The translations under genes and the position numbers were made by a program. Shown in pieces: positions 1,431-56,922 of a stretch of DNA of 64,000 nt (the first letter of the stretch is position 1; each line of letters opens with the position of its first letter). The stretch lies in the IMG/VR virus record IMGVR_UViG_3300035501_001058; one strand, given 5' to 3'. The notes beneath the pieces are model-generated. The model did no database searches. It was given only the letters and a program-made list of their open reading frames with translations, and had not been told where the DNA came from. The stretch comes from an uncultured virus (IMG/VR IMGVR_UViG_3300035501_001058). Taxonomy: Duplodnaviria > Heunggongvirae > Uroviricota > Caudoviricetes.

Positions 1431-1437
1431 TAAACAG

Positions 1438-1472
1438 GAGTACATAGTATAAAAGCTGTGTGCTCTTTTTTT
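1438..1472 (+). terminator. Intrinsic terminator-like hairpin
   Basis: gagtacatag/ctgtgtgctc stem (two G-U pairs) followed by a T7 run. Confidence 0.6.
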
Positions 1473-22441: not shown

Positions 22442-22708
22442 ATGGATAATATGCAGTTTTTCGATAATAGGGAAAAGGATGAAGTACAACTTCAATCTTT
22501 ATTAGCTGAATTTAAAGAAGAGTTACAGGATAGAAAGGACATTCTATCCTGTAACAGATACAAATGGATGTCTGGTTTTATAGAAAGTCCATGTAAAGAT
22601 AAAGCTTTAGTTATACACGGATACTTAATGGGAATACATGATAGTGGAGTTAATGTTGGTTCTTTATCTGGTTTAATGTCAAAAATAATTATAAGTTTTG
22701 ATCTTTAG
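22442..22708 (+). CDS. Hypothetical protein
   Basis: GAGG RBS; starts MDNMQFFD. Confidence 0.65.
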   Translation: MDNMQFFDNREKDEVQLQSLLAEFKEELQDRKDILSCNRYKWMSGFIESPCKDKALVIHGYLMGIHDSGVNVGSLSGLMSKIIISFDL

Positions 22709-27694: not shown

Positions 27695-27889
27695 ATGTAT
27701 AAGTGTAGTAATTGTAACAATGTATTTGATTTTCCTGATATAAGGCCTCTCGATTGTGGTCCAGTTTATGCCTATGGAATACTCGGACCTGTTAAAAATA
27801 ACACAGTTAATTTGTGCCCAGAGTGCCTATCAGAGAAAATAGAAAGGAGAAATTTACATGAAAAATTATGTATTGAAAAAGGACGGTAA
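27695..27889 (+). CDS. Small Zn-ribbon protein
   Basis: MYKCSNC...CPECLS; AGGAGG RBS. Confidence 0.65.
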   Translation: MYKCSNCNNVFDFPDIRPLDCGPVYAYGILGPVKNNTVNLCPECLSEKIERRNLHEKLCIEKGR

Positions 27890-28106: not shown

Positions 28107-28189
28107 GGGGAGATGATTATGACTATTGCAATAGCAGACGGTGATAATACACCATTAGATAATTTTCTAAAGAACTCATTAAAATCTAA

Positions 28190-28432
28190 ATGGGAAGTGT
28201 GTATCCTCCTATAAGAAACGGTAAACCATGCAGTCCAATATTAAGTCGTTATAATGATGGAAGTACAATAATGAACTATACCTGCGTATTATGCAATGAA
28301 TCACTGTGTCTATACAGCGCAAGTTGGCAGATACCAGAAGAGGATAAAGAAGTATGGAAACAATATCAGAAAGAGATTGCTGAATACAATGAAAAGCATG
28401 CTAATTTAATAGGTGTTAAAGAAATGAGGTAA
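28190..28432 (+). CDS. Small Cys-containing hypothetical protein (start uncertain)
   Basis: ORF track; the best RBS lies upstream at ~28106-28119 in another frame. Confidence 0.45.
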   Translation: MGSVYPPIRNGKPCSPILSRYNDGSTIMNYTCVLCNESLCLYSASWQIPEEDKEVWKQYQKEIAEYNEKHANLIGVKEMR

Positions 28433-28439
28433 AGATATT

Positions 28440-28664
28440 ATGACTATGAAAGAGTTTTTAAATTATTGTTCTGCATGTGGTGGTAATTGGGGTGCTATGT
28501 TGTTAACAGGTATTAAACGAGTCTTCCCAGAGGAATACAATGATGTGTGCAAACAATACGATAGTATCCCATGCACAGGAGGTGGAATACATAAATTTGC
28601 ATTTCTGTGTGAATGGTTAGATAAACATGGAGTTAAATCTGAAACAGATAGTGTTAAGGAGTGA
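28440..28664 (+). CDS. Small hypothetical protein
   Basis: GAGG RBS; CSACGGNW motif. Confidence 0.6.
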   Translation: MTMKEFLNYCSACGGNWGAMLLTGIKRVFPEEYNDVCKQYDSIPCTGGGIHKFAFLCEWLDKHGVKSETDSVKE

Positions 28665-28668
28665 TGAT

Positions 28669-28854
28669 ATGCAAACTTACGTACTTAGAAATAGAAAAAC
28701 TAAAGAAGTATGGGCAGGTGAAGCATGGTCTCTAGAAGCAGCTAAAAAATATATTGCATTTTGTAGAGGTGATACCCCTGATTTATGGGAAGATACTTCT
28801 GATTTGGAATATGAAGAATACATGGAAATTATACATGAGCTGCAAGCATTTTAA
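28669..28854 (+). CDS. Small hypothetical protein
   Basis: AAGGAG RBS before ATG at 28669; ends HELQAF within a hairpin. Confidence 0.6.
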   Translation: MQTYVLRNRKTKEVWAGEAWSLEAAKKYIAFCRGDTPDLWEDTSDLEYEEYMEIIHELQAF

Positions 28855-28927
28855 TACAAAGTGTTGTAGCTTTTTTTGGTCTTAATAAGGCTGTGCGCAT
28901 CTACAATGTTTAGTAAGGAGTGATATA

Positions 28928-29641
28928 ATGAGAAATGAATGTAAAATAAGTAACATGTATGTAATGGGAAATGAATATAAAATAGCTAATATACACGCAA
29001 AAGTAATACAAGATTTAATAAATGGTACAAGAGAGTTAAGTCATATTAATAACTTTAGAGAGTTAGATGATATTATTAAATATCAACGTTATTCTGAAGA
29101 ATCAGAAATTGTACAATTTCTATTAAAAAATAATGTTAATATCTTACCTTGTGGTAATGATGAAAATATTTTGCCAGAAGAATGTGATTTAAGAAATAAT
29201 GTTTTGATAAGAGAGTTCATTAATAGTAGAAATTATTGCGAGTTAAGCGAGTATATACGGCTTGAGTTTTATATGATAATTAGGCTTGGAATGGAGAAAA
29301 CAAAATCAAATAAAAGATTTTTTAGATTTTGTCAACTGATGACTAGCGATTTTATATGGGAAAATTATGTCATAAAACGTAATTTTCAAGAGCAAGAGCC
29401 ACAAAAGAAGTGGTTTGAGTTTTTGAATGAAAAAGACAATTTAGACACTTACATAGATAAGTATAAGCAGGCTAATGAAAACAGGTGGGAATTTATAAGT
29501 CCATGTATCAAAGAGTATTGCATAGGTAAGACAGAATTTAACATAGTAGATAGTCTATTTGGATTAGATGACTTAATTGTAGAACAATTTCATTTTTATT
29601 CGGAATATATTTCTGCTTCCTTATCCGCTATGTCAGAATAA
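28928..29641 (+). CDS. Hypothetical protein
   Basis: AAGGAG RBS; 237-aa ORF. Confidence 0.65.
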   Translation: MRNECKISNMYVMGNEYKIANIHAKVIQDLINGTRELSHINNFRELDDIIKYQRYSEESEIVQFLLKNNVNILPCGNDENILPEECDLRNNVLIREFINSRNYCELSEYIRLEFYMIIRLGMEKTKSNKRFFRFCQLMTSDFIWENYVIKRNFQEQEPQKKWFEFLNEKDNLDTYIDKYKQANENRWEFISPCIKEYCIGKTEFNIVDSLFGLDDLIVEQFHFYSEYISASLSAMSE

Positions 29642-29841
29642 ATTAATATACTCTTTGCTAAAAAATTTTCGTCATTAATACAAGTACACAATAGTGCATA
29701 ATACATTATCAGTATCATCTATTTGTAGATTAGAATATAGCATTGTAGTTTTGTAACTACTGTATTGAGTAAGAGGAGTATAAAAGCTCCTCTTACTTTT
29801 AGAAAAAGTAATTTATGACTTAGTAGAAAGGACAGATAATA

Positions 29842-30906
29842 ATGAATGATTATAGCATTTACAAAGGAGCGCTTAAAGACTCCGACAAAACAGCACCATT
29901 GTGGCATATCTATAGTAAAGATATGCCACAATTTATATTAGATTTAGCCAATACTCCAGCAATGTTAAGACTCAAAGATATTGGAATGGGTTGCGGTACA
30001 CAATATGCTAATTTTAAGATACATGGTAATATTGCAGATTATAGTAAATGGGAGCACAGTGTTGGAGTCGCTTTAATTGTTTGGAATTTTACCATGGATG
30101 TTAAGCAGACTGTAGCAGGATTACTGCATGATATAGCGACGCCAGTATTTGCACATGTTATAGACTTAGTGAATGGTGATTATGTTACACAGGAGTCTAC
30201 TGAGAAAGGAACAAAAGAGATAATAGAAAACTCGGCTGAGATTCAGCAGATACTTTCTGGGTTATCTTTGACAACAGAAGATGTTTATGATTATCACAGA
30301 TATCCAATAGCAGATAATACCTCACCATTATTATCTGCTGATAGACTGGAATACTCTTTAGGTGACTTCTACTACTATGGTTTATGCAATTTAAATCAGA
30401 TTAGGGAGCTCTACAAGCAGCTAATAATAATAAGAAATGAAAGTGGAGAGCCAGAGCTAGGTTTTAACACTAAAGCTTCTGCAGATTTATTTGCTGAGTT
30501 ATCAATGAAATGCTCTAATGTTTATGTATCTGATGAAACATTAATTACAATGGCTTATGTCAGGGATGTAATTAAATACAATTTAGAAATAGGTGCTATA
30601 AGCAGAGATGATTTATATACAGATGAAACAACTATAATTAAGTTAATTCAGAACAGTTCAGCAGGATCAAGAATGTGGGATATTTTGGGTATGTTCAAAA
30701 AAGTACATCGTGAATCAGAAAAGAGTATGCTTACTTATAGCACAAAGATAGAAGATAATAAAAGGCGTTATATAGACCCATTAATTAAGACAGGTGAGCG
30801 TGTTTCTGCTTATAGAAAGTCACATAGAAAAGCTATAAATGAGCTTCTAAATAAAAAGTTTGATTATTACTTAACATTAAATTTTTGGTGTGATGTACCT
30901 TTTTAG
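29842..30906 (+). CDS. HD-domain phosphohydrolase (dNTPase/YwfO-like)
   Basis: RLKDI, EHSVGV, LLHDIA..FAH and ADRLEY motifs. Confidence 0.88.
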   Translation: MNDYSIYKGALKDSDKTAPLWHIYSKDMPQFILDLANTPAMLRLKDIGMGCGTQYANFKIHGNIADYSKWEHSVGVALIVWNFTMDVKQTVAGLLHDIATPVFAHVIDLVNGDYVTQESTEKGTKEIIENSAEIQQILSGLSLTTEDVYDYHRYPIADNTSPLLSADRLEYSLGDFYYYGLCNLNQIRELYKQLIIIRNESGEPELGFNTKASADLFAELSMKCSNVYVSDETLITMAYVRDVIKYNLEIGAISRDDLYTDETTIIKLIQNSSAGSRMWDILGMFKKVHRESEKSMLTYSTKIEDNKRRYIDPLIKTGERVSAYRKSHRKAINELLNKKFDYYLTLNFWCDVPF

Positions 30907-30933
30907 GTAAATAATAATAGGAAGGATAACGAT

Positions 30934-31461
30934 ATGAATGTTGAAATTATTAGTTTAGATAATAAAGAAATTAAAGTTTTACGCAGAGTGAATACTCATA
31001 ATGGAGCTGCTATAAAACAAGAAGCTTTTATTGTTAGTGACATTATTTCTCTTGCACAAAATATTGAAGAAGTAAAAGAGATAAAATTTGTAAATGGATA
31101 TTATATGGCACAGGAAGATAAAGCTTCATTTATTCATGATTATGCAGCTTCTCAAGATGATAATGCAATTATTGCGATAACTGCACATCTCAGTACATTA
31201 GAGTTTCCACGTGAGGAATATTATGATCCAGATAATGCACGTGACATCGAGAGTAAGGGTAATAGAAAACCTTTGCCTTGGGATAGCATTTTAGAGAGAG
31301 AAAGTTGTATGCTAGCAGACGCAGGATTTATAAATATAAATCATTATGTGGACTATGAATATAAAATTGCTTTTATTTATAACAACGCCGCAGGTAGAAA
31401 AGTAGCTGAAAAGATTACAGAAATTATGTCACAGGAGTTGAAAGAGCTACAGTCATTTTAG
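30934..31461 (+). CDS. Hypothetical protein
   Basis: RBS; ends SQELKELQSF. Confidence 0.7.
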   Translation: MNVEIISLDNKEIKVLRRVNTHNGAAIKQEAFIVSDIISLAQNIEEVKEIKFVNGYYMAQEDKASFIHDYAASQDDNAIIAITAHLSTLEFPREEYYDPDNARDIESKGNRKPLPWDSILERESCMLADAGFININHYVDYEYKIAFIYNNAAGRKVAEKITEIMSQELKELQSF

Positions 31462-31489
31462 CTGCTATAGGTGTTTGTAGCTCTTTCAA
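31438..31489 (+). terminator. 14-bp inverted repeat overlapping the last codons of 30934..31461
   Basis: ttgaaagagctaca / tgtagctctttcaa. Confidence 0.7.
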
Positions 31490-31553
31490 TGAAACCTAAC
31501 AATTTTAACAATTAAATAATTTTAAGAGTATTAAATTAAGGAGAAATGAATAT

Positions 31554-32849
31554 ATGAAAAAGGTATTATTAAATGGGCACAAGATGAATGAGGTACTAGC
31601 CATTCTTAAAAAGGCAATACAGGAAGAGCTTCCACAGCATTTTGTAGTACAGTGTAAAAATTGTACTCTGTCAATTGTAGCTAGTAATCAGCTTGGGCAT
31701 AATAAAGGTACAATCGAAATTGCTTTACGCAATATGAATGATTCTGATTTTCTATTAGATGAGGAATATACGATTATACCAGCATTTCCACTAATAGCAT
31801 TTCCTGCATTTGTAACACAATTTAAGGAACTAGATGAAATAAATTTTAAAGAAGTATGGGATGCATGGGATATCATAGCCAGCCATTATAGTGCATCACA
31901 GGAGTTGAAAGAGCCAAAGGAGAATAAGCTTATGAAAGATATGAATTTATTTGATGATGAAGAGAGTAACAAAGAATCAAAGTTAGAAAAACCCGAAGGT
32001 TGGGAAGAGTTTAAGGAAGAAACTGGTAATAAAAACTTAGTGTACTATGACCCTAATGAATGGGAGATTTGTTATAAAAGACTTGCTGATACTCATTATT
32101 TACACTATAAAGGAAAAGGTAAGATTAAAAATACACCAATTAATATAAGTTCTTGCTACAGGATGTTTCATGAATGTGAAAATTTAATAGAATTAGATCT
32201 CTCTAATTTTGATACTAGTAAGGTTATTAATATGTGTGGCATGTTTTGGGGTTGTAAGAGTTTGGAAGAATTAGATCTTTCTAATTTTGATACTAGTAAA
32301 GTTACTAATATGCATGGTGTGTTTTGTGGATGTGAGAGTCTGAAAGAACTAGATCTCTCTAGCTTTGACACTAGTAATGTTATTTATATGTCTGCTATGT
32401 TTGAAGCCTGCGGCAAATTAGAGAGATTAGATCTTTCTAATTTTGACACTAGTAAAGTTACCAATATGGATGAAATGTTTACAGGTTGTGTGAGTATGAA
32501 AGAGCTGAATCTTTCTAGTTTCGATACAAGCAATGTTACTGATATGTGGGAAATGTTTATGCATTGTAGAAGCTTAGAAAAAGTAGATCTTTCTAATTTT
32601 GATACTAGTAAGGTTGATAATATGGGTTATATGTTTTATGAATGCGTGAAGTTAAAAGAATTAGATCTTTCTAGTTTTCGCTCTGATAATGTTACTAATA
32701 TAGCTGGTATGTTTGCAGTTTGTAATAAGTTAGAAAGATTAAATCTTTCTAACTTTGATACAGAATATGTCATTGGTACGGAAGATATGTTTAGTGAATG
32801 TTTTAATTTACCTCAAAGTATAAAAGACAAGATAGTAAATATACAATAA
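31554..32849 (+). CDS. Fusion: unknown 126-aa domain + BspA/DUF285-type 26-aa repeat protein (8 repeats)
   Basis: MFxxCxxLxxLDLSNFDTSxVxxM repeats; internal RBS and in-frame ATG at 31932 (MKDMNLF). Confidence 0.85.
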   Translation: MKKVLLNGHKMNEVLAILKKAIQEELPQHFVVQCKNCTLSIVASNQLGHNKGTIEIALRNMNDSDFLLDEEYTIIPAFPLIAFPAFVTQFKELDEINFKEVWDAWDIIASHYSASQELKEPKENKLMKDMNLFDDEESNKESKLEKPEGWEEFKEETGNKNLVYYDPNEWEICYKRLADTHYLHYKGKGKIKNTPINISSCYRMFHECENLIELDLSNFDTSKVINMCGMFWGCKSLEELDLSNFDTSKVTNMHGVFCGCESLKELDLSSFDTSNVIYMSAMFEACGKLERLDLSNFDTSKVTNMDEMFTGCVSMKELNLSSFDTSNVTDMWEMFMHCRSLEKVDLSNFDTSKVDNMGYMFYECVKLKELDLSSFRSDNVTNIAGMFAVCNKLERLNLSNFDTEYVIGTEDMFSECFNLPQSIKDKIVNIQ

Positions 32850-32933
32850 TTTCAGGAGAATGGTAAGTAAAATTACCATTCTCCTACTATTTTAGAATAA
32901 GGAGGTTTAACAATGAAAGATATGAATTTATTT
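32841..32933 (+). repeat. Intergenic cassette copy 1: stop - hairpin - RBS - MKxMxxF
   Basis: 13-bp perfect stem aggagaatggtaa/ttaccattctcct, then aataaggaggtttaacaATGAAA. Confidence 0.9.
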
Positions 32934-33968
32934 AATGAAATAAAAAAACCAGAAGGATGGAAAGAATTTAGAGAGGAAACAGGTAATAAAAACTTAGTGT
33001 ACTATGACCCTAATGAATGGGAAATTGAATTAGATGAGGACATTACTGATATTCTTTATTTACATTACAAGGGAGATGATAAGCTAAAAAATGCTCCAAT
33101 TAATATTAGTTCTTGTTACAGCATGTTTTTTGGTTGTATGAATCTAAAAGAATTAGATCTTTCTAAATTTGATACAAGTAAGGTTACTAATATGTATGGT
33201 ATGTTTGAAGGTTGTGATAGTTTAGAAAAGTTAGATCTTTCTAAATTTGATACAAGTAAAGTTACTGATATGTCTTATATGTTTAATGAATGTACAAGCT
33301 TAGAAAAATTAGATCTTTCTAAATTTGATACAAGTAAAGTTACTGATATGTCTTATATGTTTTGTGAATGTGAAAATTTAGAAAAATTAGATATTTCTAA
33401 TTTTGACACTAGCAAGGTTACTAATATGAGAAGTATGTTTAGTGAATGTACAAGCTTAGAAAAATTAGATCTTTCTAGTTTTAACACTAGTAATGTTACT
33501 GATATGTATGCTATGTTTTATCATTGCAAGAGTTTAGAAAAATTGGATCTTTCTAGCTTTGATACAAGTAATGTTTGTGATATGACAGGTATGTTTTATG
33601 GATGTAATAGTTTGGAAAGATTAGACCTTTCTAATTTTGACACTAGTAAAGTTACTGATATGAGTTACATGTTTTTTGTATGTAAGAAATTAAAAACTTT
33701 AAATGTTTCTAATTTTGACACAAGTAATGTTACTGATATGAGGTATATGTTTTGTGCATGTAACAATTTAAAAGAATTAGATCTTTCTAGTTTTGATACA
33801 AGAAATGTTACCGATATGTCTGAAATGTTTCGTTGTTGTATGAAATTAAAAGAATTAGATCTTTCTAATTTTGATACTAGTAATGTTACTGATATGTCTG
33901 AAATGTTTCGTGAATGTTTTAATTTACCTCTAAGTATGAAAGACAGAATTAGAAATAATATACAATAA
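32913..33968 (+). CDS. BspA/DUF285-type repeat protein (10 repeats), no signal peptide
   Basis: Ten 26-aa repeats between a conserved N-cap (KPEGWKEFREETGNKNLVYYDPNEW) and C-cap (NLPxSxK). Confidence 0.9.
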   Translation: MKDMNLFNEIKKPEGWKEFREETGNKNLVYYDPNEWEIELDEDITDILYLHYKGDDKLKNAPINISSCYSMFFGCMNLKELDLSKFDTSKVTNMYGMFEGCDSLEKLDLSKFDTSKVTDMSYMFNECTSLEKLDLSKFDTSKVTDMSYMFCECENLEKLDISNFDTSKVTNMRSMFSECTSLEKLDLSSFNTSNVTDMYAMFYHCKSLEKLDLSSFDTSNVCDMTGMFYGCNSLERLDLSNFDTSKVTDMSYMFFVCKKLKTLNVSNFDTSNVTDMRYMFCACNNLKELDLSSFDTRNVTDMSEMFRCCMKLKELDLSNFDTSNVTDMSEMFRECFNLPLSMKDRIRNNIQ

Positions 33969-34072
33969 TTCCAGGAGAATGGTAAGTAAAATTACCATTC
34001 TCTTTTACCATTTTAAAATAAGGAGGTTTAACAATGAAATCTATGGATTTTTTCGACAATGAAAAGAGTAGT
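33960..34072 (+). repeat. Intergenic cassette copy 2
   Basis: Near-identical hairpin and RBS; continues ATGAAATCTATGGATTTTTTC. Confidence 0.9.
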
Positions 34073-34614
34073 ATAGTAAAACCTAAGGCTGGAAAGAGTT
34101 TAGGGAAGAAACAGGTAATAAGAATTTAGTATTGTACGATCCTGATGAGTGGAAGATTAGTTTAGATGAGGAAACTGGTGTATATTATTTGCATTATAAG
34201 GGAAATGATAAGATTAAGAGTGCTCCAATTAATATAAGTTCTTGTTATAAAATGTTTGCATATTGTGATCTTTTAAAAGAACTAGATCTTTCCAATTTTG
34301 ATACTAGTAAAGTTACTAATATGTGTGGCATGTTCTGGGGGTGTAAGAATTTAAGGGGGCTTAAACTTTCTAATTTTGATACAAGTAATGTCACTGATAT
34401 GAGCTGGATGTTTAGTGAATGTAAGAGATTAGAAAGTTTGGATCTTTCTAATTTTGACACAAGCAATGTTACTGCTATGGGGCATATGTTTGAAAAGTGT
34501 AAGAAATTAGAAGAGTTGAACATTTCCGGTTTTAATACAAATAAAGTTACTAATACATATGAAATGTTCACTGAATGTAAAAGTTTACCTCAGAGTATAG
34601 AAAATAGATTTTAA
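34034..34614 (+). pseudogene. Frameshifted BspA/DUF285-type repeat gene (4 repeats)
   Basis: True start at 34034 (MKSMDFFD). One base is missing at 34084/34085 (cct-aa-ggc vs cct-gaa-ggc in the 35088 paralogue); restoring it joins the 34132..34614 frame. Could be a sequencing error. Confidence 0.75.
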
Positions 34615-34617
34615 AAT

Positions 34618-34760
34618 AAGGAAGATGAGCTTATGAAAGCTATGAATTTATTTGTGACTAAGACGGTAAAGAATCCAATTTAGGTAATCCCAAAGTACCT
34701 TTAGGATCCATGGAAGAAACCGCTAATAAGAATTTAATACTTTATTATTCTAATAAGTGA
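34618..34760 (+). pseudogene. Decayed remnant of a further repeat-gene 5' end
   Basis: aaggaagatgagcttATGAAAGCTATGAATTTATTT resembles 31917-31952; later encodes EETANKNLILYYSNK* (cf. EETGNKNLVYYDPNEW). Confidence 0.65.
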
Positions 34761-35087
34761 AAAGTTAAGGGTGCAGTTAGTTATTACAGAAAATAAAGCT
34801 AAACTTCAATAAAACTTAAAGCATACCTAGCCTTAGTAAAATAATAAATGAAAATTTATTTTCTTTTCACTTAAATTTAAAATGATAAGGGGGATTTATA
34901 ATGAGTATTTATCAGTTTCTTAAAATCAGATTTTAAAGCAATGGATACTAGTTGTAGTAGTTTATTAGTGCATAGACATAAAGTAGTTTGTAGTTTAATC
35001 ATTTGCTTATAATTGTGCAATTTGAAATACTATATGGTAAATGATAAAAATATTTAAAGATTATTTAATTATGGAGGCCAAATAAAT

Positions 35088-36080
35088 ATGATAAATAGAT
35101 TTAGAGGAAAATATAGTTTTCTTAGTAACTTTTTTGATTCACCAGTAACTTATAATGGGATAACTTACTTAAATAGTGAAGCTGCATTTCAGGCACAGAA
35201 GACTTTTGATGATAGAGAACGTTTTAGTTATTTACCACCAGCATCAGCGAAGAGATTAGGTAGAAGAGTACAGATGAGAAAAGATTGGGAGATCGTTAAA
35301 ACTGATGAAATGTATAAAATTGTGAAAGCAAAGTTTTCTCAGAATGAGGATTTAAAAAATAAACTTATTGAAACAGGCGATGAATATCTAGAAGAAGGAA
35401 ATACTTGGGGAGATAGAACCTGGGGCACAGTAAACGGTGTTGGAGAAAATAGACTAGGAAAAATCCTGATGAAAGTTAGAAAAGAATTGCAGTCTGGAAT
35501 ATCTGATAATAAATTGAATGAAAATAGCTATGATACAGTGAACTTCCATGAGGAAAGCTCTAGTATACATAAAGCAGACTTGAATTTGGATAATACTCTT
35601 ATAAAAGCAACTAGTACTAAGCCTGAAGGCTGGAAAGAATTTAGAGAAAAAACTGGTAATCATAATTTAGTATACTATGATCCTAATGAATGGGAAGTTG
35701 TTATAGAAGTTGCTACAGAATACTTACATTATAAGGGAGATAGTAAAATTAAGAATGTTCCAGTTAATATAAGTTCTTGCTATTATATGTTTTATGGATA
35801 TAATCTTGAAATTTTGGACCTTTCTAATTTCGAGACAAGTAATATAATTAATATGGAAGGCATGTTTTGTTGCTGTATGAGATTAAAAGAATTGAATCTT
35901 TCTAATTTTAATACAAGTAAGGTTACTAATATGGAAGCTATGTTTTATGCTTGTGCTAATCTAAAAAAACTAGATATTTCTAGTTTTAACATGGGCAATG
36001 TTATTGCTAATGGAAGCATGCTTGCTGGATGCAATAATTTACCACAAAGTGTAAGAGAAAAAATTCAAAATAATAGATAA
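35088..36080 (+). CDS. NADAR (YbiA-like) domain fused to BspA/DUF285-type repeat module (3 repeats)
   Basis: FLSNF, SEAAFQAQK, KFSQN..LK..LI.TG, DRTWG and GENRLGKILMKVR motifs, then the KPEGWKEF N-cap and repeats. Confidence 0.88.
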   Translation: MINRFRGKYSFLSNFFDSPVTYNGITYLNSEAAFQAQKTFDDRERFSYLPPASAKRLGRRVQMRKDWEIVKTDEMYKIVKAKFSQNEDLKNKLIETGDEYLEEGNTWGDRTWGTVNGVGENRLGKILMKVRKELQSGISDNKLNENSYDTVNFHEESSSIHKADLNLDNTLIKATSTKPEGWKEFREKTGNHNLVYYDPNEWEVVIEVATEYLHYKGDSKIKNVPVNISSCYYMFYGYNLEILDLSNFETSNIINMEGMFCCCMRLKELNLSNFNTSKVTNMEAMFYACANLKKLDISSFNMGNVIANGSMLAGCNNLPQSVREKIQNNR

Positions 36081-36184
36081 TTTTAGGAGAATGATAAGTA
36101 AAATTATCATTCTCTTTTACTATTTTAGAATAAGGAGGATTTATAATGAAATCTATGGATTTTTTCGGTAATGAAAAGAGTAGT
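36075..36184 (+). repeat. Intergenic cassette copy 3
   Basis: Same hairpin with a compensatory G-C to A-T pair change (gagaatgataa/ttatcattctc); RBS; first 13 codons nearly identical to those at 34034. Confidence 0.9.
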
Positions 36185-38482
36185 AAGAAACCAAAGGAGA
36201 ATATACATACCTCTAAATATAAAACAAATATGATTCTTGATGGAGGTGCTTATAAAATAACTTATACAAAAGATAAGAAACAAGCCAAAATAACAATTGG
36301 AAATGAAAAAATCATGACAGTTATGTCAGCGAGAAGAATTTATAATGAAGTTAAAGAAATACTTGACTCGGAATTTGATTATGAGCTTCTGGATAAGTTA
36401 TACCTAATGAATCGCGATACAAATAGATGTGGATATAAGAGTATATTAAAATATCAAAATATATCTATAGAATTGGCTGTAAAGATAATGCAACTAAAAA
36501 ATATGGATAATCTTGGTAATGATAATAAAGATATAAAGTCAAATGTATTAGAAATTTTAAATATCGGTCGTACAAGTTCAGGAAAAACCAGATTTATTTT
36601 AGGCTCTTTTTTATCTAAAGACACTTTGAAAAATTTTGTACCTGCACTAACTAGTTTGACAGAAACTACAGCATGTTCGATCATATATCATTTAAACTCT
36701 CAAACAGTCAAAATTGAAGATAACTATGACTTTAGAGTCGATGTAAAACTAAAGAATGAAGAGGAAATTCGTGATAGCATTAGGGGGTTAATAATAGAGG
36801 CTATTGAAGAATATATTATAACAGTAAAAGAAAATTCAAAGAATATTGCAGATGTTGAAGAACTTTGTGAAAAATGTAAAGAGGCAGTAATAATGAGTCT
36901 AGAATCAAATTATGATAAAACTTTTGGTCTTGGAAAAAGAGAGTCAAATATTAGTTTGGCAAAAGATGTGGAGAAATTAACTATAAGTGCACTTGTAGAA
37001 TATTACGGAAATAGCAAATCTATCGATAAGATAATAGACGAAGACAGATATTTTATAATAAGGCAACTTATAAGTGAGTGTAAAGATGAGCGGTTTGATA
37101 TAAGCTGTGATGAAATAAATGACATGCTTAATAGATTTAATACTAAAAAGGCTTATTTAAATCTTGTAAATGGCATTTATGGAAAAATTAAAGATGATTT
37201 GGATTCATATAAAGATGACTACAGCTCCAATGCTTGTATAGGAGAAATTATTAGTTATAGCGGAAATGCTTCAGGGGAAGATACTCTTAATCAGTTAAGT
37301 CATATATTTGGTAATAAAAGGAAACAGAAAAGTGGATACTTTTATACGATTAAACCTATTGTGAAAATGGCTGAGTTTTATTTCAACGTTAAAGAATTAG
37401 AAGAAATAAGTGACAAAGAAATAGTCTTATCAGATAGTGTAGGTATTAACCAAGGTCAGAAAGATTTAAACATAATAAATGAAGTAGTGCTTAATAGAAT
37501 CCAAGAATCTGTCCAAACTAGAAAACCAGATATTATTCTTTATCATACTAGACTTGATGATAAGGACGATAATATGTATGATATTGTAAGCAACTTAAAT
37601 GCTCAAGGATACGGAAAATCAATATGTATAGTTTCTGGAATGCTAGATAGTGTATTAACTTCATATCTTAAAGAGCAGAGTCTAGAAATAGATCATTTAG
37701 ACAAAGAGTTGTTTGATAATTTTCTTGAAGAAATTAATCAAATATATGTTGAGTCCGATAGTGCTACATTGAATTCGATTGTAGAAAATAGATATTTTAT
37801 TTGTGACAAAACTAATGAGTTAGCAGACAAGTTCCCGTATGCAACTGACTATAGTTGTACTGAAATTCTAAAAAAGGTTATTGCATTTCATTCATTTCAT
37901 TCAATAAATGAAAGAAGTGGCACGTTATATGATGATATTGATTTTATGAAAATGATACAAGATAATTATGTGCCTGAAAGTGTATATCAGCAGTATCAAG
38001 AACAAATTAAGTCGATGATATCTATGTCAAATAATATGAGGTGGAGTACATTACAGAAAGCAATAGAAGAGTTAAGGTGTAATAGGTATGGGTACGATAT
38101 ATTGTATCCTGCTTTTAATGTAAGAAATGCATTAGCTGAGGAATTAAATAAAGATGAAATAAAAAACAAGTTTATAGAAAAATTTGGTAATGATGTCGAT
38201 AAAATAAAAATACGCTATCTTCTAGAGGTAACAGATGTGGCACAAATAGTTTTAGTTACTGAATATAAGGCATTTATGAAACGACTTTTACAAATGCAAT
38301 ATGATGCTGATTTAAGAACAGATTTAAGTACATCATTGACAAATGATCGTAAGTATAATTTACAAATGTTGTATAAATCATGTTTAGAAAAGAAAGATAT
38401 AGATGGGGTATCTAGTCTTAAAATAGTATTTCATATAGCATGGATTAGGACACTAGAATATTTTAATAAGAAGTGTAATTAA
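36146..38482 (+). CDS. Large P-loop GTPase (dynamin-like/TRAFAC)
   Basis: G1 GRTSSGKT, G2-like TETT, G3 DSVG, G4-like TRLD; long helical inserts. Confidence 0.65.
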   Translation: MKSMDFFGNEKSSKKPKENIHTSKYKTNMILDGGAYKITYTKDKKQAKITIGNEKIMTVMSARRIYNEVKEILDSEFDYELLDKLYLMNRDTNRCGYKSILKYQNISIELAVKIMQLKNMDNLGNDNKDIKSNVLEILNIGRTSSGKTRFILGSFLSKDTLKNFVPALTSLTETTACSIIYHLNSQTVKIEDNYDFRVDVKLKNEEEIRDSIRGLIIEAIEEYIITVKENSKNIADVEELCEKCKEAVIMSLESNYDKTFGLGKRESNISLAKDVEKLTISALVEYYGNSKSIDKIIDEDRYFIIRQLISECKDERFDISCDEINDMLNRFNTKKAYLNLVNGIYGKIKDDLDSYKDDYSSNACIGEIISYSGNASGEDTLNQLSHIFGNKRKQKSGYFYTIKPIVKMAEFYFNVKELEEISDKEIVLSDSVGINQGQKDLNIINEVVLNRIQESVQTRKPDIILYHTRLDDKDDNMYDIVSNLNAQGYGKSICIVSGMLDSVLTSYLKEQSLEIDHLDKELFDNFLEEINQIYVESDSATLNSIVENRYFICDKTNELADKFPYATDYSCTEILKKVIAFHSFHSINERSGTLYDDIDFMKMIQDNYVPESVYQQYQEQIKSMISMSNNMRWSTLQKAIEELRCNRYGYDILYPAFNVRNALAEELNKDEIKNKFIEKFGNDVDKIKIRYLLEVTDVAQIVLVTEYKAFMKRLLQMQYDADLRTDLSTSLTNDRKYNLQMLYKSCLEKKDIDGVSSLKIVFHIAWIRTLEYFNKKCN

Positions 38483-38801
38483 GTAGAATAGAGAAGAGTA
38501 CAAATATGCTTGTTTTGGTGTTGTAGCATTTAATGAAGATCGTCATAAAGGTAGTTTTGTGTTTATAGTCAATAATGAAATTCAGAGAATTTAAAGCATA
38601 ACTCTATTGTTTAATCATAATATTTCACTTTTATGCTATACAGAGAAAGAAGACTTTGAAGACTTCGATGATATTAATAAGTACTTAAGTTATAAATAAC
38701 CACAAATAGGTGAGAATTTTTGTATTAAATTCTAGTGCTTTATTGACACCAAGACTATTCTTAAATAACTGTTATAATTTGGGAATAAATTATGGAGTGA
38801 G

Positions 38802-39005
38802 GTGATTAATATGGATGATACACCAGAAAGTGTAAAAATAGCTACAGAATGGGGTATAAAGGAGTATGCACATTTAAAAAAAGAGCATGAAGAAGCAGTG
38901 GCTCAAGCAAAACACGCTGCAGCGATAGCTGATAGAAAATTAAATCTTACACCAGAGGAGATTAAATTAAGTAATCGTGGCATGCCATGGGAAAATGATG
39001 AATAG
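38802..39005 (+). CDS. Small hypothetical protein
   Basis: GGAG/GAGG RBS; TGnTATAAT at 38770-38778 upstream. Confidence 0.55.
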   Translation: MINMDDTPESVKIATEWGIKEYAHLKKEHEEAVAQAKHAAAIADRKLNLTPEEIKLSNRGMPWENDE

Positions 39006-39093
39006 AGGAAAATACGGAAATATCATAGAAAGATACTTAACTGAGCTATAAACGAGTATGTTTTAATTATAATAAAATACAATTCTAATACAC

Positions 39094-39153
39094 CATTATA
39101 AAAAGAGAGGAAGTAACACATTGAGTGCTAACTATTCCTCTCTTTTTATAATG
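39094..39153. repeat. Perfect 19-bp inverted repeat with 22-nt spacer
   Basis: cattataaaaagagaggaa / ttcctctctttttataatg. Confidence 0.85.
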
Positions 39154-39206
39154 TAGAAATTAATATAGAATCGCAGAACTTAAACACACTGAAAGGAGTC
39201 AAAATT

Positions 39207-41328: not shown

Positions 41329-41556
41329 ATGAATAGTATGACTTTTTTTGATACAAAAGCTGGACATGAATTTACAGATTTTATTATACCAAAGTTAGTT
41401 GATTACACAGATAAGATAGCTAATAAGAAACAGTATACAGTAAGATGTCAGCCTGCAGCTGTAATTGATACTATTGAGGCAAGAGTAAAGGATGGCTATA
41501 GATATGTGAATCATATAGATTTTGATAAGACTACATTAATTATATTTGAAAAATAG
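41329..41556 (+). CDS. Small hypothetical protein
   Basis: AGGAGG RBS; starts MNSMTFFD. Confidence 0.65.
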   Translation: MNSMTFFDTKAGHEFTDFIIPKLVDYTDKIANKKQYTVRCQPAAVIDTIEARVKDGYRYVNHIDFDKTTLIIFEK

Positions 41557-41569: not shown

Positions 41570-43342
41570 ATGAAGAATATGGATGTTTTTGAACCTGCTA
41601 CTCAGCAGGAGAAAGATAATATTATTAAAGATTTGACTAAAAATACTGCGGCTTTTGGAATAGATTTAGGTACAACAAATTCAGCTATTTCAGTTATACC
41701 ACGTGGTACAGCACCAGTAATAATATCATTAAAAGGTGGTAGATCAACAATTCCTTCTTGTGTGATGTGGCTTGGGGGAGATAATTTTATAGTTGGAAAA
41801 GAAGCATATGAACAGCGATACAGAGAGAATTGTTGCTATTCAGTAAAAAGGTTTATGCAAGACCCAAAAGCTTTGATAACACTTGTTTACAATGGTGAGA
41901 AAAAGATAATGACACCTGCAGAGGTTTCAGCTGAGATTCTTAAAGGTTTAGTTGCAGAAACTGGTGATGTATATGGGGACATAAAAGATGTAGTTATTAC
42001 CGTTCCTGCTAAGTTTAACGAAATAGGTAGATCAAATACAAAGAAAGCTGCTGAATTAGCAGGTTTAAATGTATTAGGTATAATTGCGGAGCCAACAGCT
42101 GCATCTATGTGCTACGAATTGAAACCAACAGATGGTGGTAATAGGGATTTACTTGTATACGATTTAGGTGGCGGTACTTTTGATGTATCCTTAGTACGAG
42201 TAACAGGGGAACAGGACTATAGTAAGGTTGAAGATGTTTATGGTATACCAGAAGCAGAGAGAAGAGTTAGTACTAAAACAACAATAAGAGCTATAGACGG
42301 TGACGGAAATGTTACTCTAGGTGGAGATGATATTGACAGAGAGATATATAATAATTGCATCAAGGAGCTAGAGGAGAGAGGCTGTGACGTTTCTCATATT
42401 TCTACAGAAGAAGAAAATAGGTTAATACTTCTTATAGAGCAGTTAAAGAAAAGTGACATACATAGTATCACCCAATTACATTTCCATTTAGGTAATGATG
42501 AAACATACGAAGTTGTTTCTTTAAATTATGATTCATTTAAAGCAGGTTTGTTACCTACATACAATAAAACGAAAACTATCGTAAATGAAGTATTAAAGAG
42601 AAATAGAAATTCTAGCACTGACACTATAGTCTTAGTGGGCGGTTCAACAAAAAATCCAATTTTAAAAGAATTACTTGAAAAAGATTACCCTGGATATGAA
42701 ATTAATGATGCGTTCCCTCAGGATGAAGCTGTTGCTTTAGGAGCCGGAATACATTCACGTTTCTTAAAATATGGTGATAATAATATTAGCGTGTTTGATA
42801 GTTTGATAGATAGTATAGGTGTTGATAGTTCTGATAAAATGTCAGTTATAATACCAAGAGGTTCACAGTTTCCTGTTACAAAGTTTAAGTTATATGAGAC
42901 ATCTGAAGACGACCAAGCAGCTATTGATGTTGATATACTTCAGGGAAATTCATCAGTTGCTGCAGAAAATTGTAAGTTGGGAACAATGGTCATAGATAAT
43001 TTACCAAAAGGTAAGGCTGGAACTGTTGATATTCGAATACAGCTATCTATAAATGTGCGTGGCTTATTAAAGTGCTCTGTAACAATTACTAAAAATGATG
43101 AAGATATCTCTAAGAGAGAGGTTATCAATAGAGAAATGAGTCTTGAGTTAAGCTCAGGAAATGCACCTACTGAAAAGCTTAGTAAAGATGAAAAGCTTAA
43201 AATAAAATGGAGAGCTTTTGCTAGAAATTTGAAGGAAACAGATGCATCAGAATTCCTTCAGATGGTAGATGCATACCCAAATAATCACAGTTTAGCAGAC
43301 ATACAGCAGAAGATGAAGGAGTTGCGAAATGTATGTAAATAA
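41570..43342 (+). CDS. Hsp70/DnaK-family chaperone (divergent, short lid)
   Basis: GIDLGTTNS, EPTAA, YDLGGGTFDVS, LGGDDID, LVGGST and DEAVALGA; AGGAGG RBS before ATG at 41570. Confidence 0.93.
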   Translation: MKNMDVFEPATQQEKDNIIKDLTKNTAAFGIDLGTTNSAISVIPRGTAPVIISLKGGRSTIPSCVMWLGGDNFIVGKEAYEQRYRENCCYSVKRFMQDPKALITLVYNGEKKIMTPAEVSAEILKGLVAETGDVYGDIKDVVITVPAKFNEIGRSNTKKAAELAGLNVLGIIAEPTAASMCYELKPTDGGNRDLLVYDLGGGTFDVSLVRVTGEQDYSKVEDVYGIPEAERRVSTKTTIRAIDGDGNVTLGGDDIDREIYNNCIKELEERGCDVSHISTEEENRLILLIEQLKKSDIHSITQLHFHLGNDETYEVVSLNYDSFKAGLLPTYNKTKTIVNEVLKRNRNSSTDTIVLVGGSTKNPILKELLEKDYPGYEINDAFPQDEAVALGAGIHSRFLKYGDNNISVFDSLIDSIGVDSSDKMSVIIPRGSQFPVTKFKLYETSEDDQAAIDVDILQGNSSVAAENCKLGTMVIDNLPKGKAGTVDIRIQLSINVRGLLKCSVTITKNDEDISKREVINREMSLELSSGNAPTEKLSKDEKLKIKWRAFARNLKETDASEFLQMVDAYPNNHSLADIQQKMKELRNVCK

Positions 43343-53079: not shown

Positions 53080-53523
53080 ATGGAAGAATTACATGTATTT
53101 GATGATTTATACAGTGCTGAGGAACAGCAGGAAATTAAAATAGATGAATCTCTTGCATCTACTTTCTCAGATATAAAGCAAAAATTGATAGAAGGAAAAT
53201 ATAGCTACGCAAAAGATTATTTAAAAAATGCAACCTCTGTAGAAGAAATTGTCATTACAGCTGCAGCATACAGAATTGGGGAAGAATATGCTGCAGCACT
53301 ACAAGACGATTTAGACATTGAGGAAAAGAAAGTTGCGTTATTTGGTTTTAAAAATGAATTAAACGTCATTGAGCAAATAAAAGGTGGCGAAGCATTACCT
53401 GATTTAGTTACTTTAATAGAAGCTTCAAAAATTCCAGGATTTGAGTTGATGAGTTTTTTCGATGAAACGGGTTCTTATATCAATTATCCAAAGATTAGAA
53501 AATTCATACAAGAAAATTCATAA
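53080..53523 (+). CDS. Hypothetical protein
   Basis: AAGGAG RBS; starts MEELHVFDD. Confidence 0.7.
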   Translation: MEELHVFDDLYSAEEQQEIKIDESLASTFSDIKQKLIEGKYSYAKDYLKNATSVEEIVITAAAYRIGEEYAAALQDDLDIEEKKVALFGFKNELNVIEQIKGGEALPDLVTLIEASKIPGFELMSFFDETGSYINYPKIRKFIQENS

Positions 53524-54927: not shown

Positions 54928-56922
54928 ATGGGTGAATTAAAAGAGATGAATCTTTTCTCTTCTAATGCAGACGCTAAACCATCTTTTGATGAAGCATATG
55001 AACAATTTTGTCGAGAGCTGGGGTTGGATTACAGATATAATAAATTAAGATGTAAGGCTTTTGATAAATACCTACTAGAATTATTTAGCCAAGGAAATTT
55101 ATTACATAATCCGGATTTAGATAAATTGGTTAAGGAATCATTTTCTTCATATCAAGAAGAATTTGATGTTAAGTATAGCAACTGCTGGGCAATTGCTAAA
55201 TGTTTAGAAGCTGGTGCAGATTTGCATAAAATTATGACTAGTGGTAGCTTGCGTGCAGAAGCAGTTATAGAGGCAATTAGTCTTGATAGTACAGTTGATA
55301 TCAATTTAGCAATTGATATACAGAAAGTTCTCAACATAAATAATGAATTTGAGAAAATCGTGAAAATGATAACAGGAAATAGTTATCGAAAGAAAAATTC
55401 ATATGGATACACATTACTAACAGTGTACAATCTTATAAAAAGTTATCCAGAGGTGCAAGCTCATTTAGACTCGTGGAGTGATAATTATTGTCTTGTGATT
55501 ATAGGAAATTATTTACAAGAAGGTATAGCATACTACGAAGCAATTCAACGTGTTGATAGATACAAAGGTAAAAAATATTCTTGGCAACTAGCTAAATTAA
55601 TGGATATAAAATTCCCAAATGATAATGTATTACCTAAAAACACAGATTTATTTGAGATAGTAGCGCAAAATGAAATAAAATACTGTAATAGTTTACAGGA
55701 ATTAGAGGCTAGATTTACTAGCTTACAAGAATTGTTACATAAAGATAATGCTACAATTACAGCCAAAGATATTAGTGATGTTGCTTCTGTATACGAGACA
55801 GGTTTTTCCATTGGTAAATTAATGGAGATGTATCCTGAGATAAGAGAATCTATTGCTATACAAAAGTTTATTTCATTGTGCAAATTAGCACGTTCAATTA
55901 TTGACAGAAATTCTATAAGTAGTTCTATGCATAGAAGAGACACTACAGGACTGTATAGTGAATATGTTTTTGGTGGAGAAATAGTAAAGGTATATAAACC
56001 GGAACTGCTTTTCGATCTATTCAGGCATGTTATTGATAACCTTTCTACTGAAGCTATAGGAAATTTTAGTAAAGTAGATTATGTTTCTTATTATGTAGAA
56101 AATTGGATAAATGGTATTTCTGGAACAGTGATGTGCTTACAAGATAAAAGTGAAGTAAAAGCTATACTATCTAGAAATTTTTCAGAAGTACAAATAGCAT
56201 ACAATGGAAGAATTATGAATCATTTTCCAGCAGATTTCTTTATTGAATACGGTGAAGAAGTTATCTTTTGGGTAAAGAAGAATAGACCTAAGTATTTCAT
56301 AATTAAGCATGAATTTGTAACACAAAAATCTGATATTGATAAAACTGCTGATAATCTAGTCATAGATTTTAGCGATAATAATGATTTAGGATACGTGTTA
56401 CATGAATGCTGTTTAGGTTTATCTGTAGACTTTGCTACTAAAAAGAGAACTGTTCTTGAAAGTGGATATAGATTGGGTACTCCGTACTATAAAATATTGT
56501 TAAAGAACTATTTTAAGGAGCATGGACAAGATTACAATGAGATAGAAACTTTTGATGTTCAGACTGTTGTTGGTATGATACAAGCTTTAATTTTACAAAA
56601 GTCTAGTGAATACGAAGAGCTATTTAAGAAACATGATGTTTTTGTTGCAGTGATGCGTGGTCTTAAATGGTGTATTAGAAATGATGATAATTTATACAGT
56701 GCAGTAGTGCGATATGCTCTATTAGCTGCAGGTATCAATAGTAGATACACACGATGTAGGATTAGCCCTACTTTAAGCAGTACATTAGTTATTGATGATA
56801 AACAATATCCTATTTTGCAGTGTTTGACTAACAATAATAAGATAATTGAGTTTTTAAAAACAAACAGAGATTTTCTACAAATAGAATTGATAGGGGATCA
56901 AATACATGTTAAGGGTGCATAG
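54928..56922 (+). CDS. Large hypothetical protein
   Basis: 664-aa ORF; AAGGAG RBS; starts MGELKEMNLF. Confidence 0.7.
   Translation: MGELKEMNLFSSNADAKPSFDEAYEQFCRELGLDYRYNKLRCKAFDKYLLELFSQGNLLHNPDLDKLVKESFSSYQEEFDVKYSNCWAIAKCLEAGADLHKIMTSGSLRAEAVIEAISLDSTVDINLAIDIQKVLNINNEFEKIVKMITGNSYRKKNSYGYTLLTVYNLIKSYPEVQAHLDSWSDNYCLVIIGNYLQEGIAYYEAIQRVDRYKGKKYSWQLAKLMDIKFPNDNVLPKNTDLFEIVAQNEIKYCNSLQELEARFTSLQELLHKDNATITAKDISDVASVYETGFSIGKLMEMYPEIRESIAIQKFISLCKLARSIIDRNSISSSMHRRDTTGLYSEYVFGGEIVKVYKPELLFDLFRHVIDNLSTEAIGNFSKVDYVSYYVENWINGISGTVMCLQDKSEVKAILSRNFSEVQIAYNGRIMNHFPADFFIEYGEEVIFWVKKNRPKYFIIKHEFVTQKSDIDKTADNLVIDFSDNNDLGYVLHECCLGLSVDFATKKRTVLESGYRLGTPYYKILLKNYFKEHGQDYNEIETFDVQTVVGMIQALILQKSSEYEELFKKHDVFVAVMRGLKWCIRNDDNLYSAVVRYALLAAGINSRYTRCRISPTLSSTLVIDDKQYPILQCLTNNNKIIEFLKTNRDFLQIELIGDQIHVKGA

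Follow-up and report, generated by a model that had tools for sequence, protein, structure and literature searches.

Repeated structured sites between genes are a feature of integrons, in which a tyrosine-recombinase integrase (IntI) is encoded beside the array and attC imperfect inverted repeats bound unrelated, promoterless open reading frames (ORFs). Here, we examined a locus with repeated structured sites in a 64,000-nucleotide (nt) stretch of DNA from an uncultured virus of the Caudoviricetes (IMG/VR record IMGVR_UViG_3300035501_001058); this whole stretch is referred to below as the window. A first-pass annotation had described three copies of a cassette in the window, each with a hairpin, a ribosome-binding site (RBS), and codons for a shared N-terminal peptide (the tag), and it had proposed that foreign ORFs were captured behind the cassette in an integron-like array. 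The analysis presented here pointed to a different history. We consider it probable that the units join the members of a tandem DUF285 gene array now in decay, that a single deletion moved the tag of a paralogue stump to a gene for a P-loop protein, and that the tag is an N-terminal linear motif used throughout the mobile element to which the window belongs.

The locus was similar to integron cassette arrays in having repeated structured sites between co-oriented genes. It differed from them in that an integrase was absent from the scanned window ORFs and in that the repeats flanked paralogues and included coding sequence on both sides. In contrast to attC sites, the hairpin had a perfect 13-bp stem, a 6-nt loop, and a U-tail, and it belonged to an element-wide family that was terminator-like. 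The PeSL motifs of T4-type phages are described as small composite stem-loop signals that lie in hyperplastic regions, punctuate accessory genes, and are proposed exchange points (PMC4122927). The window also had stem-loop signals that were concentrated in a hyperplastic region among variable accessory genes, but no promoter part was shown, the three copies were explained by paralogue duplication, the mapped junction was in coding sequence, and the other hairpins shared only the loop and the tail. Finally, the 78-nt periodicity, tandem copies, pseudogenes, and chimeras were features in common with DUF285/BspA-type leucine-rich-repeat (LRR) tandem arrays. Unlike in those arrays, the paralogues here appeared to bear an element-wide N-terminal tag, and one stump seemed to have given that tag to a foreign gene.

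For the tag, the best analogy in terms of a putative function comes from T-even phages, in which a capsid targeting sequence is found on diverse internal proteins (PMC3012670). In both cases, a short conserved N-terminal peptide is the sole shared part of diverse, fast-changing accessory proteins. Foreign proteins can receive the T-even peptide by fusion, as described in PMC3012670, and the tag appears to have been passed on in the same way. However, no virion genes were found among the scanned ORFs of the window and its relative, and the tag carriers included an Hsp70-like protein and large proteins of conserved modules. Bacterial clamp-binding motifs are likewise short hydrophobic linear motifs that end in F and are found on many unrelated proteins. 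PMC12309361 gives their consensus as QL[S/D]LF or QxxLF and describes positions 1, 4, and 5 as critical. According to the same source, clamp motifs may be N-terminal, internal, or C-terminal, whereas the tag was always N-terminal and was followed by G or D and acidic residues.

The cassettes are joints in a DUF285 gene array

A repeat search of the window identified three near-identical units:

32838..32932, + strand: cassette copy 1, with the 3' end and stop codon of gene 1, a hairpin (32854-32885), AAGGAGG (32899-32905), ATG 32913, and tag codons; flagged as terminator-like
33957..34073, + strand: cassette copy 2, with the 3' end of paralogue B, a hairpin (33973-34004), AAGGAGG, and ATG 34034
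36069..36185, + strand: cassette copy 3, with the 3' end of paralogue E, a hairpin (36085-36116) that has a compensatory pair (36094/36107), AAGGAGG, ATG 36146, and 13 tag-bearing codons of paralogue F

The unit boundaries are approximate. Copies 2 and 3 (33965-34073 and 36077-36185) were 90% identical across 109 nt. A 53-nt repeat was present in three copies (32880, 34001, and 36113) with 83-85% identity to the first copy, as was a 46-nt repeat (32838, 33957, and 36069) with 85-98% identity to the first copy. Every unit carried a stop codon, AAGGAGG, and ATG-AAA-xxx-ATG-xAT-TTx-TTx, and folding predicted a 12- to 13-bp stem with a GUAAAA loop in each one. The minimum free energies were -21.3, -24.3, and -25.4 kcal/mol for copies 1 to 3, and the corresponding folding z-scores were -3.1, -3.3, and -4.0. 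A 30-nt hairpin pattern occurred three times in the window and zero times in 100 shuffles. Thus, the repeat search and the folding confirmed the units that the annotation had described. Its observation of a compensatory change also held: the stem pair was G/C in copies 1 and 2, and since copy 3 had an A at 36094 and a T at 36107, the pair was kept as A:U.

The genes preceding copies 1 to 3 and the genes following copies 1 and 2 encoded DUF285 (PF03382) LRR proteins. In four neighboring ORFs, the Pfam scores for DUF285 were 183, 250, 108, and 61 bits (cut-off, 25 bits), and the DUF285 genes of the array were built from 78-nt repeats. The homology between the cassettes extended upstream of the stop codon in all three copies and took in the final ~60 nt of the gene before each cassette, which encode ..ECFNLPQS.K..I... 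Because all three copies extend into the coding end of the DUF285 gene before them, each cassette is a joint of a tandem paralogue array. As DNA, the cassette is therefore ordinary: one paralogue ends, an intergenic hairpin and an RBS follow, and the next paralogue begins. The exact start motif was found in five copies in the window, all within the DUF285 array, and two of these copies (31932, inside the gene at 31554-32849, and 34633) had no hairpin. The members of the array that precede the P-loop gene were as follows:

31554..32849, + strand: gene 1, a 126-aa (amino acid) N-terminal part without an assigned family, in frame with DUF285 paralogue A (Pfam DUF285, E 1.9e-54)
32913..33968, + strand: DUF285 paralogue B, 351 aa, intact, begins MKDMNLFNE (Pfam DUF285, E 2.3e-75)
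34034..34614, + strand: DUF285 paralogue C, a pseudogene (three-frame translation; Pfam DUF285, E 4.4e-31 on 34132-34614)
34633..~34780, + strand: stump of paralogue D, with an RBS-only junction (AAGGAAG..GAGCTT-ATG), MKAMNLF, and a 60% copy of a repeat that is also found in paralogue C
35088..36080, + strand: a NADAR domain in frame with DUF285 paralogue E (Pfam NADAR, E 3.7e-25; DUF285, E 1.5e-16)

Several of these genes retained traces of earlier gene starts or were degraded. Gene 1 contained an intact internal RBS (CCAAAGGAGAATA, 31914-31926) and a tag start at ATG 31932 (MKDMNLFDD). In paralogue C, the tag frame ended after 31 codons, and a 1-nt deletion near 34080 shifted DUF285 to another frame. 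The stump of paralogue D was decayed past MKAMNLF, with a stop-ridden KPEGW..NKNL.. module remaining, and the joint between NADAR and paralogue E held decayed tag codons (KADLNLDN, ~35571-35594). The remnant of a sixth paralogue, paralogue F, consisted of the tag codons of copy 3, which form the upstream part of the 778-aa gene described below. When the N-terminal module of paralogue B (residues 1-75) was compared to the protein collection, the sole match was the window's own NADAR::DUF285 protein. Outside the tandem array, a 205-aa ORF at 24721-25338 had a sub-threshold DUF285 match (23.5 bits; cut-off, 25 bits).

We suggest that the DUF285 LRR array was recently duplicated and is now decaying, and that illegitimate recombination in the array yielded three chimeras that are in frame. 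Two of these, gene 1 and NADAR::DUF285, would have arisen by placement of a foreign N-terminal part before a paralogue, and the third would be the 778-aa gene. The integron-like capture array that had been proposed did not agree with this arrangement, as all copies adjoined DUF285 paralogues, no integrase or other recombinase family was found by Pfam in the 73 window ORFs, and the junction was in coding sequence. The two cassette DNA patterns (the hairpin, and the RBS with the start) had 0 matches in each of three public collections (genome, viral, and metagenome contigs), and nothing matched in a megablast search of positions 31000-39000 against phages and plasmids.

A paralogue stump is fused to a P-loop gene

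Copy 3 leads into a gene that is unrelated to DUF285:

36146..38482, + strand: fused 778-aa P-loop protein (dynamin-like by lead only), with residues 1-13(-18) from paralogue F and family homology from residue 22

The first residues of the 778-aa ORF (MKSMDFFGNEKSS) and of the ORF at 34034 (MKSMDFFDNEKSS) were identical at 12 of 13 positions, and the DNA identity of copy 3 to copy 2 stopped at 36185, in agreement with the abrupt end noted by the annotation. The annotation had also predicted that homologues of the protein, which it called a GTPase, would lack the first ~20 aa, and this was the case for all 57 homologues retrieved (42-62% identity); none of them began with MKSMDFF. In 54 of the 57, the start was located 7-10 residues ahead of a conserved (I/L)ILDG, a region that corresponds to window residues 22-33, and the alignment accordingly began at window residue 22.

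In 10 related loci from Lachnospiraceae and other metagenome-assembled genomes (MAGs), the P-loop gene stood alone with its own GGAGG and ATG, and a TTGAC..TATAAT-like promoter was seen upstream by eye. When the 5' regions were aligned, AAAGGAG at 36193-36199 in the window fell on the RBS of the relatives, and ACC at 36209-36211 fell on their ATG. Thus, the native start codon position of the 778-aa gene differed from ATG at two bases. The fused ORF read through the former RBS (..KKPKENIH..), and no Shine-Dalgarno sequence was found ahead of Met29. The mapped junction (36185-36199) placed the fusion point 40-55 nt into coding sequence and not at the hairpin; between 36185 and ~36199, there was possible weak homology to the paralogue linker. 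An identical fused 778-aa protein was present on three contigs, the longest of which was 191 kb. The 13-mer CCAAAGGAGAATA found upstream of the internal start of gene 1 (31914-31926) was also present at the fusion point (36191-36203), which gave two occurrences versus 0.10 expected. We considered and rejected this 13-mer as a second type of junction, as it overlapped the Shine-Dalgarno sequence and may represent deletion microhomology or chance.

The data suggested the following series of events. A single deletion would have joined codon 13-18 of the paralogue to the 5' untranslated region of a downstream accessory P-loop gene, possibly at an AAGG(A) microhomology, and the former start codon would since have been mutated at two bases. 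The fused gene, which has no start codon of its own, is most likely translated from the paralogue RBS and ATG, since the old start was changed and Met29 had no RBS, and its product would carry the paralogue's N-terminal peptide. The dynamin-like protein thus appears to be a new carrier of the tag, via fusion. The idea that expression signals and a tag were gained in one step was consequently supported for the 778-aa gene but not as a repeated capture process, as the cassette was present only between paralogues. The annotation had named in advance the counter-case of a cassette restricted to tandem paralogues and a one-off deletion at the GTPase gene, and that counter-case matched our findings.

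The 778-aa protein had a Walker A sequence (GRTSSGKT) at residues 141-148. G141, G146, K147, and T148 were invariant across 20 aligned family sequences, and the protein kept all of the 130+ invariant columns in the 20-sequence alignment. No match was found in Pfam, PHROGs, PADLOC, or PDB sequences. A search of the ESM Atlas returned Dynamin_N clusters with feature scores of 0.89-0.90 and TM scores of 0.35-0.47, which are leads only; the GTPase label is therefore a reasonable lead and not a result. Relatives of the protein were not found among viral contigs or by tblastn against phages, and the genome that holds the closest related element contained no homologue of the P-loop protein. The relatives at L001, L002, and L004 were in varied gene contexts. 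A conserved 66-aa cysteine-rich (zinc-ribbon-like) ORF followed the P-loop relatives at L001:10297-10497, L002:10313-10513, and L004:10313-10513, and the window P-loop gene had no obvious counterpart of this ORF downstream.

The N-terminal tag is present on unrelated proteins

The tag was usually M-x-x-M-x-hydrophobic-F-(G/D/N/E), with a core of (M/L)-x-hydrophobic-F. A six-frame search of the window for M..M.[FLVIM]F gave nine occurrences, of which seven were at RBS-preceded ORF starts and an eighth was the RBS-preceded internal start in gene 1 (31932). Three of the RBS-preceded starts (22442, 41329, and 41570) headed genes that were unrelated to DUF285. Overall, the tag core headed at least five further, unrelated window genes:

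22442..22708, + strand: unrelated 88-aa gene with the tag MDNMQFFDNREK (MDNMQFFDN), at the left edge of the variable region
41329..41556, + strand: unrelated 75-aa gene, begins MNSMTFFDT, with the tag pattern at its start
41570..43342, + strand: Hsp70-like protein (Pfam HSP70, E 7e-70), with a 28-aa N-terminal extension that begins MKNMDVFEP and is followed by FGIDLGTTN
53080..53523, + strand: unrelated 147-aa gene, begins MEELHVFDD (a looser form); the orthologue in the related element begins MQYMNLFGD
54928..56922, + strand: unrelated 664-aa gene, begins MGELKEMNLFSS (a looser form), with the tag in homologues

Within residues 1-14, the frequency of the core [ML]-x-hydrophobic-F-[GDENS] was then compared with the count expected from the rate of the motif inside the same proteins. 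The counts were 7 for the 73 window genes (0.98 expected), 7 for the 196 genes in the related element (1.7 expected), and 0 for the 52 chromosomal genes beside the related element (0.22 expected). In 11 control loci around the P-loop relatives, no tag was found at an RBS-preceded start.

Conservation of the tag in homologues of its carriers is a stronger argument than these enrichment counts. Among 119 homologues of the Hsp70-like protein that reached the N terminus (38-69% identity), 106 had the core by regular expression, 12 more had (I/V/A)-x-x-F-(G/D) by eye, and 1 lacked the extension, which leaves 118 of 119 with the tag. In an alignment of 28 sequences, the tag F was invariant (28/28), and the M was at least 90% conserved. 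The 664-aa protein had 11 matches among 1.8 billion representatives, and all six homologues that aligned from the N terminus began M-x-x-M-(N/D)-(L/I)-F-(G/D/E/N) at 25-32% identity. In addition, orthologue pairs from the window and the related element kept the tag while the neighboring residues differed. This conservation and the spread over unrelated genes indicated that the tag is, as judged from sequence, an element-wide conserved N-terminal short linear motif, for which the DUF285 paralogues would be just one carrier family. The bearers included LRR proteins, Hsp70, a Zn-ribbon protein, and several proteins without an assigned function.

An AlphaFold2 model of the Hsp70-like protein had a mean pLDDT of 86, and residues 1-10 had a pLDDT of 48. 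Such a low-confidence N terminus fits a free, disordered linear motif that is followed by a linker. We rejected the idea that the Hsp70-like protein docks its own tag on the basis of this value for residues 1-10, which is a weak argument. The tag is apparently undescribed as a motif, given that its carriers had no family annotation over the tag, that the clamp consensus did not fit, and that the tag did not surface in literature searches, a weak check in which the peptide itself was not queried. The clamp consensus was the only known class of short motif that was compared with the tag.

Some additional observations were made at or near tag carriers. A 699-aa ORF at 50980-53079 had a tag-like MVVFDDLDIDDF at residues 26-37; either the Met in this sequence is the true start or the motif is internal. 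At 41570-44033, the Hsp70-like gene and the beginning of a DnaG-type zinc-ribbon gene overlapped by 14 nt, with a RuvC-like gene next, and the related element had the same gene order. A J-domain protein was seen in neither the window nor the related element.

The cassette hairpins belong to a larger hairpin family

A script that searched for at least eight stem pairs around an NTAAAA loop identified eight hairpins on the coding strand of the window and one on the other strand, compared to a mean of 1.8 in shuffled sequences. Five of the eight coding-strand hairpins had at least 13 pairs:

1433..1470, + strand: UAAAA-loop hairpin, 15 pairs, intergenic
29765..29800, + strand: UAAAA-loop hairpin, 13 pairs, intergenic in the variable region
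32852-32887, 33971-34006, and 36083-36118, + strand: cassette hairpins as members of the hairpin family

In the related contig, the script found 19 hairpins on the coding strand and 2 on the other strand. Fourteen of the 19 had at least 11 pairs, and all of these were within the element (L115-L123) and none in the adjacent chromosome. The family had a (G/A/U)UAAAA loop and stems of 11-16 bp that were otherwise unrelated. Three features were shared without having been selected for, namely an AGG at the base of the stem on its 5' side, a closing pair made of U.G and G-C (GU(G/A)UAAAAGC), and a tail of CUUUU. The same syntenic intergenic gap was occupied by the hairpin at 1433 and by one hairpin of the related element, and their stems were unrelated. 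A covariance model of the cassette gave weaker matches upstream of other genes of the related element, in which the stems differed and the loop was the same. The evidence that we counted for the family was the strand bias, the enrichment over shuffles, the conserved loop, the closing pairs, the tail, and the orthologous position with a different stem. Stem covariation over 19 hairpins (96.7% paired) was rejected as evidence, since a count on sequences that the script had picked for their ability to pair is circular.

With regard to function, two of the three cassette copies were flagged as terminator-like. The U-rich tail was broken in copy 1 (CUACUAUUUUA) and was UUUUAC(U/C)AUUUUA in copies 2 and 3, and the stems were AT-rich. 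Promoter-like matches (9/12 at 33992-34019 and 36104-36131) were not above chance, with 64 found and 77 expected. The hairpins resemble terminator-type punctuation that belongs to the element itself and has a conserved loop, and the cassette hairpin may terminate transcription.

The cassette copies also matched the Rfam family RF02948 (cow-rumen-4 RNA) at 32854-32910, 33973-34031, and 36085-36144, with scores of 27.9, 29.8, and 24.0 bits, which are below the gathering score of 48.5. The matches were full length (1-64 of 64), and with E values of 0.72 and 2 at the scale of the whole window, they are a lead only. Both the cassette and RF02948 have a hairpin whose loop contains GUAA, together with a U-rich spacer and AUAAGGAGG. 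At the gathering threshold, nothing was found by Rfam on 140 kb of the related element.

The array is located in a variable region of a giant mobile element

The array sits in a giant (at least 185 kb), one-strand mobile element of gut Clostridia. The closest relative retrieved was a 250-kb contig of a Lachnospiraceae MAG, in which the proteins were only 26-78% identical and the array was absent. This contig consisted of ~62 kb of chromosome and a tyrosine integrase, followed by at least 185 kb in which all genes were on one strand. The related element (L111-L123, G001:C37) encoded a fused RNA polymerase beta-beta' of 2877 aa (e.g., L120:10047-18680, - strand), a 1401-aa PolA-type polymerase, a clamp loader, a TubZ-like tubulin, an NAD-dependent DNA ligase, and a thymidylate synthase, as well as a sortase, a 1805-aa SpaA-domain protein, a T2SSE-type ATPase, and the Hsp70-like gene. 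Among the 214 ORFs scanned with Pfam (of 224 called), the sole Phage_integrase match was at the element's end. No capsid, portal, terminase, prohead-protease, relaxase, or VirB4/VirD4-type family was found by Pfam in the 73 window and 214 related-element ORFs or by PHROGs in 69 window and 48 related-element ORFs, and divergent structural genes or genes past the contig ends may exist. The related element may be a giant integrative and conjugative element, a plasmid-like element, or a very divergent prophage. The window DNA had no match to known phages or plasmids, and a literature search on the element type (giant integrative, RNA polymerase, tubulin, Lachnospiraceae) returned nothing relevant among the matches listed.

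Synteny between the window and the related element extended over 21-22414, was broken after a DnaB-like helicase gene, and resumed at 41570 with the Hsp70-like gene. The nonsyntenic ~19 kb in between (22442-41556), which contained the whole DUF285 array and the P-loop gene, corresponded to 4.5 kb in the relative, and this difference in size indicated that the array is in a hyperplastic region. The domains encoded in the variable region (22442-41556) were metallophosphatase, Fic, HD, NADAR, HEPN, and DUF285, which are of a defense or counter-defense type. Elsewhere, a metallo-beta-lactamase-fold protein (62534-63442 and L114:9954-10865) was 69% identical between the two elements, and it had a weak partial match to the anti-Pycsar protein Apyc1 (37 bits; cut-off, 50 bits).

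Discussion

Two other accounts of the locus were weighed against the one-deletion history. The fusion might be a neutral or damaging accident that left the P-loop gene silent or translated from Met29 without the tag. The event was a one-off, the frame may be preserved by chance, and one homologue (P0034) is annotated with the start MILDGG, all of which would be compatible with an accident. We nevertheless regard it as unlikely, as the ORF was intact across 778 codons with every family-invariant residue kept, Met29 had no RBS, two bases of the native ATG had changed to give ACC, and the same fused protein was found on three contigs. We give even less credence to the cassette as a dedicated recombination module, integron- or PeSL-like, behind which foreign ORFs are repeatedly inserted. 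PeSLs are a precedent for small terminator/promoter motifs as exchange points, as described in PMC4122927, and such a module would account for the unrelated gene behind one copy, for the location of the array in a hyperplastic region, and for hairpins of the same family that flank variable genes in the related element. However, DUF285 paralogues (or a stump) were on both sides of all three copies, the 73 window ORFs contained no recombinase family, the fusion point was within coding sequence and not at the hairpin, the cassette DNA was not found in three collections, and promoter-like matches numbered 64 versus 77 expected. Furthermore, the other hairpins of the family had unrelated stems and thus offered no homology for exchange.

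The history of array decay and tag transfer that we prefer has its own weak points, in the structure, the counts, and the order of events. A compensatory change among only three copies is weak evidence for selection on structure; the chance of such a change is ~3% by our own rough estimate, and template switching inside a palindrome could also yield the pair. Enrichment of the tag was counted on gene starts that a simple script of ours had scored by RBS, the expected values are approximate, and five of the window's tag copies belong to paralogues and are not independent. The order of the duplication and deletion events is a reconstruction, because no close relative of the array was found. Judging from its sequence context, the fused ATG is likely, but no more than likely, to be the start that is used. 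Finally, the frame would be kept by chance in one of three cases, so the fusion need not have been selected.

What the tag does is a separate question from how it was moved. Most likely, in our view, the tag serves to dock the proteins that bear it to a single common putative partner or machine. A more specific proposal, which we put forward tentatively and expect may well be wrong, is that the element family uses an N-terminal address peptide (M-x-x-M-x-hydrophobic-F-G/D) to tag a changing set of proteins for a common putative machine, that cargo is recruited by 5' fusion, and that the UAAAA hairpins are the element's transcript punctuation, read by its own polymerase or an RNA-binding factor. 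Another candidate is that the tag is a client motif for the element's own Hsp70-like protein, which is a possibility. It is rather doubtful that the tag is a targeting signal that loads cargo into a particle or transfer machine, like the T-even capsid targeting sequence, with the dynamin-like protein having become cargo. A signal of this kind would suit a tag that was strictly N-terminal in at least 10 unrelated families and was followed by acidic, disordered linkers, as well as a variable region that encodes NADAR, Fic, HEPN, and HD (defense- or counter-defense-type domains). T4-type capsid targeting, on the other hand, takes place in a virus whose prohead has a core and whose maturation protease cleaves off the peptide. 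None of the virion or transfer families listed above was detected by Pfam in 73 window and 214 related-element ORFs or by PHROGs in 69 and 48 of them, respectively, and one of the carriers was an Hsp70-like protein within a replication module.

Two further explanations for the shared start have a low probability in our judgment. The shared start could be an mRNA-level initiation feature, A/U-rich and unstructured with two ATGs, rather than a functional peptide. A strong RBS always preceded the tag and the tag codons were A/T-rich, but the offset of the core from the start varied from 3 to 15 residues in homologues, the F was invariant while position -1 was A, L, V, C, or F (unrelated codons), and the tag survived at 25-32% protein identity, which makes this explanation improbable. 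Least probable of all is a sliding-clamp-binding motif that tethers the bearers to a replication clamp. The tag does resemble the pentapeptide-like hydrophobic motifs with a terminal F, some carriers were in the replication module, the related element encodes its own clamp loader, and Bacillus subtilis DnaE is described as using QMGLF (PMC12309361). In the 106 tagged Hsp70-like homologues, however, Q was at position 1 in 4 and L at position 4 in 16, compared to F in all 106, and LRR and other carriers had no obvious link to DNA. The rarity of both Q and L at these positions ruled out the tag as a canonical clamp motif.

We conclude that the window probably records the transfer, by one deletion, of a short N-terminal linear motif to a foreign protein. 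A clean outgroup of 57 homologues without the motif supports the transfer, and the sites of the former RBS and start can still be read in the new ORF. The motif itself appears to be conserved over unrelated families of poorly known giant Clostridial mobile elements, and it would provide a handle for pull-downs and for the prediction of cargo in metagenomes. The identity of the partner would tell how these elements organize or deliver their accessory proteins.

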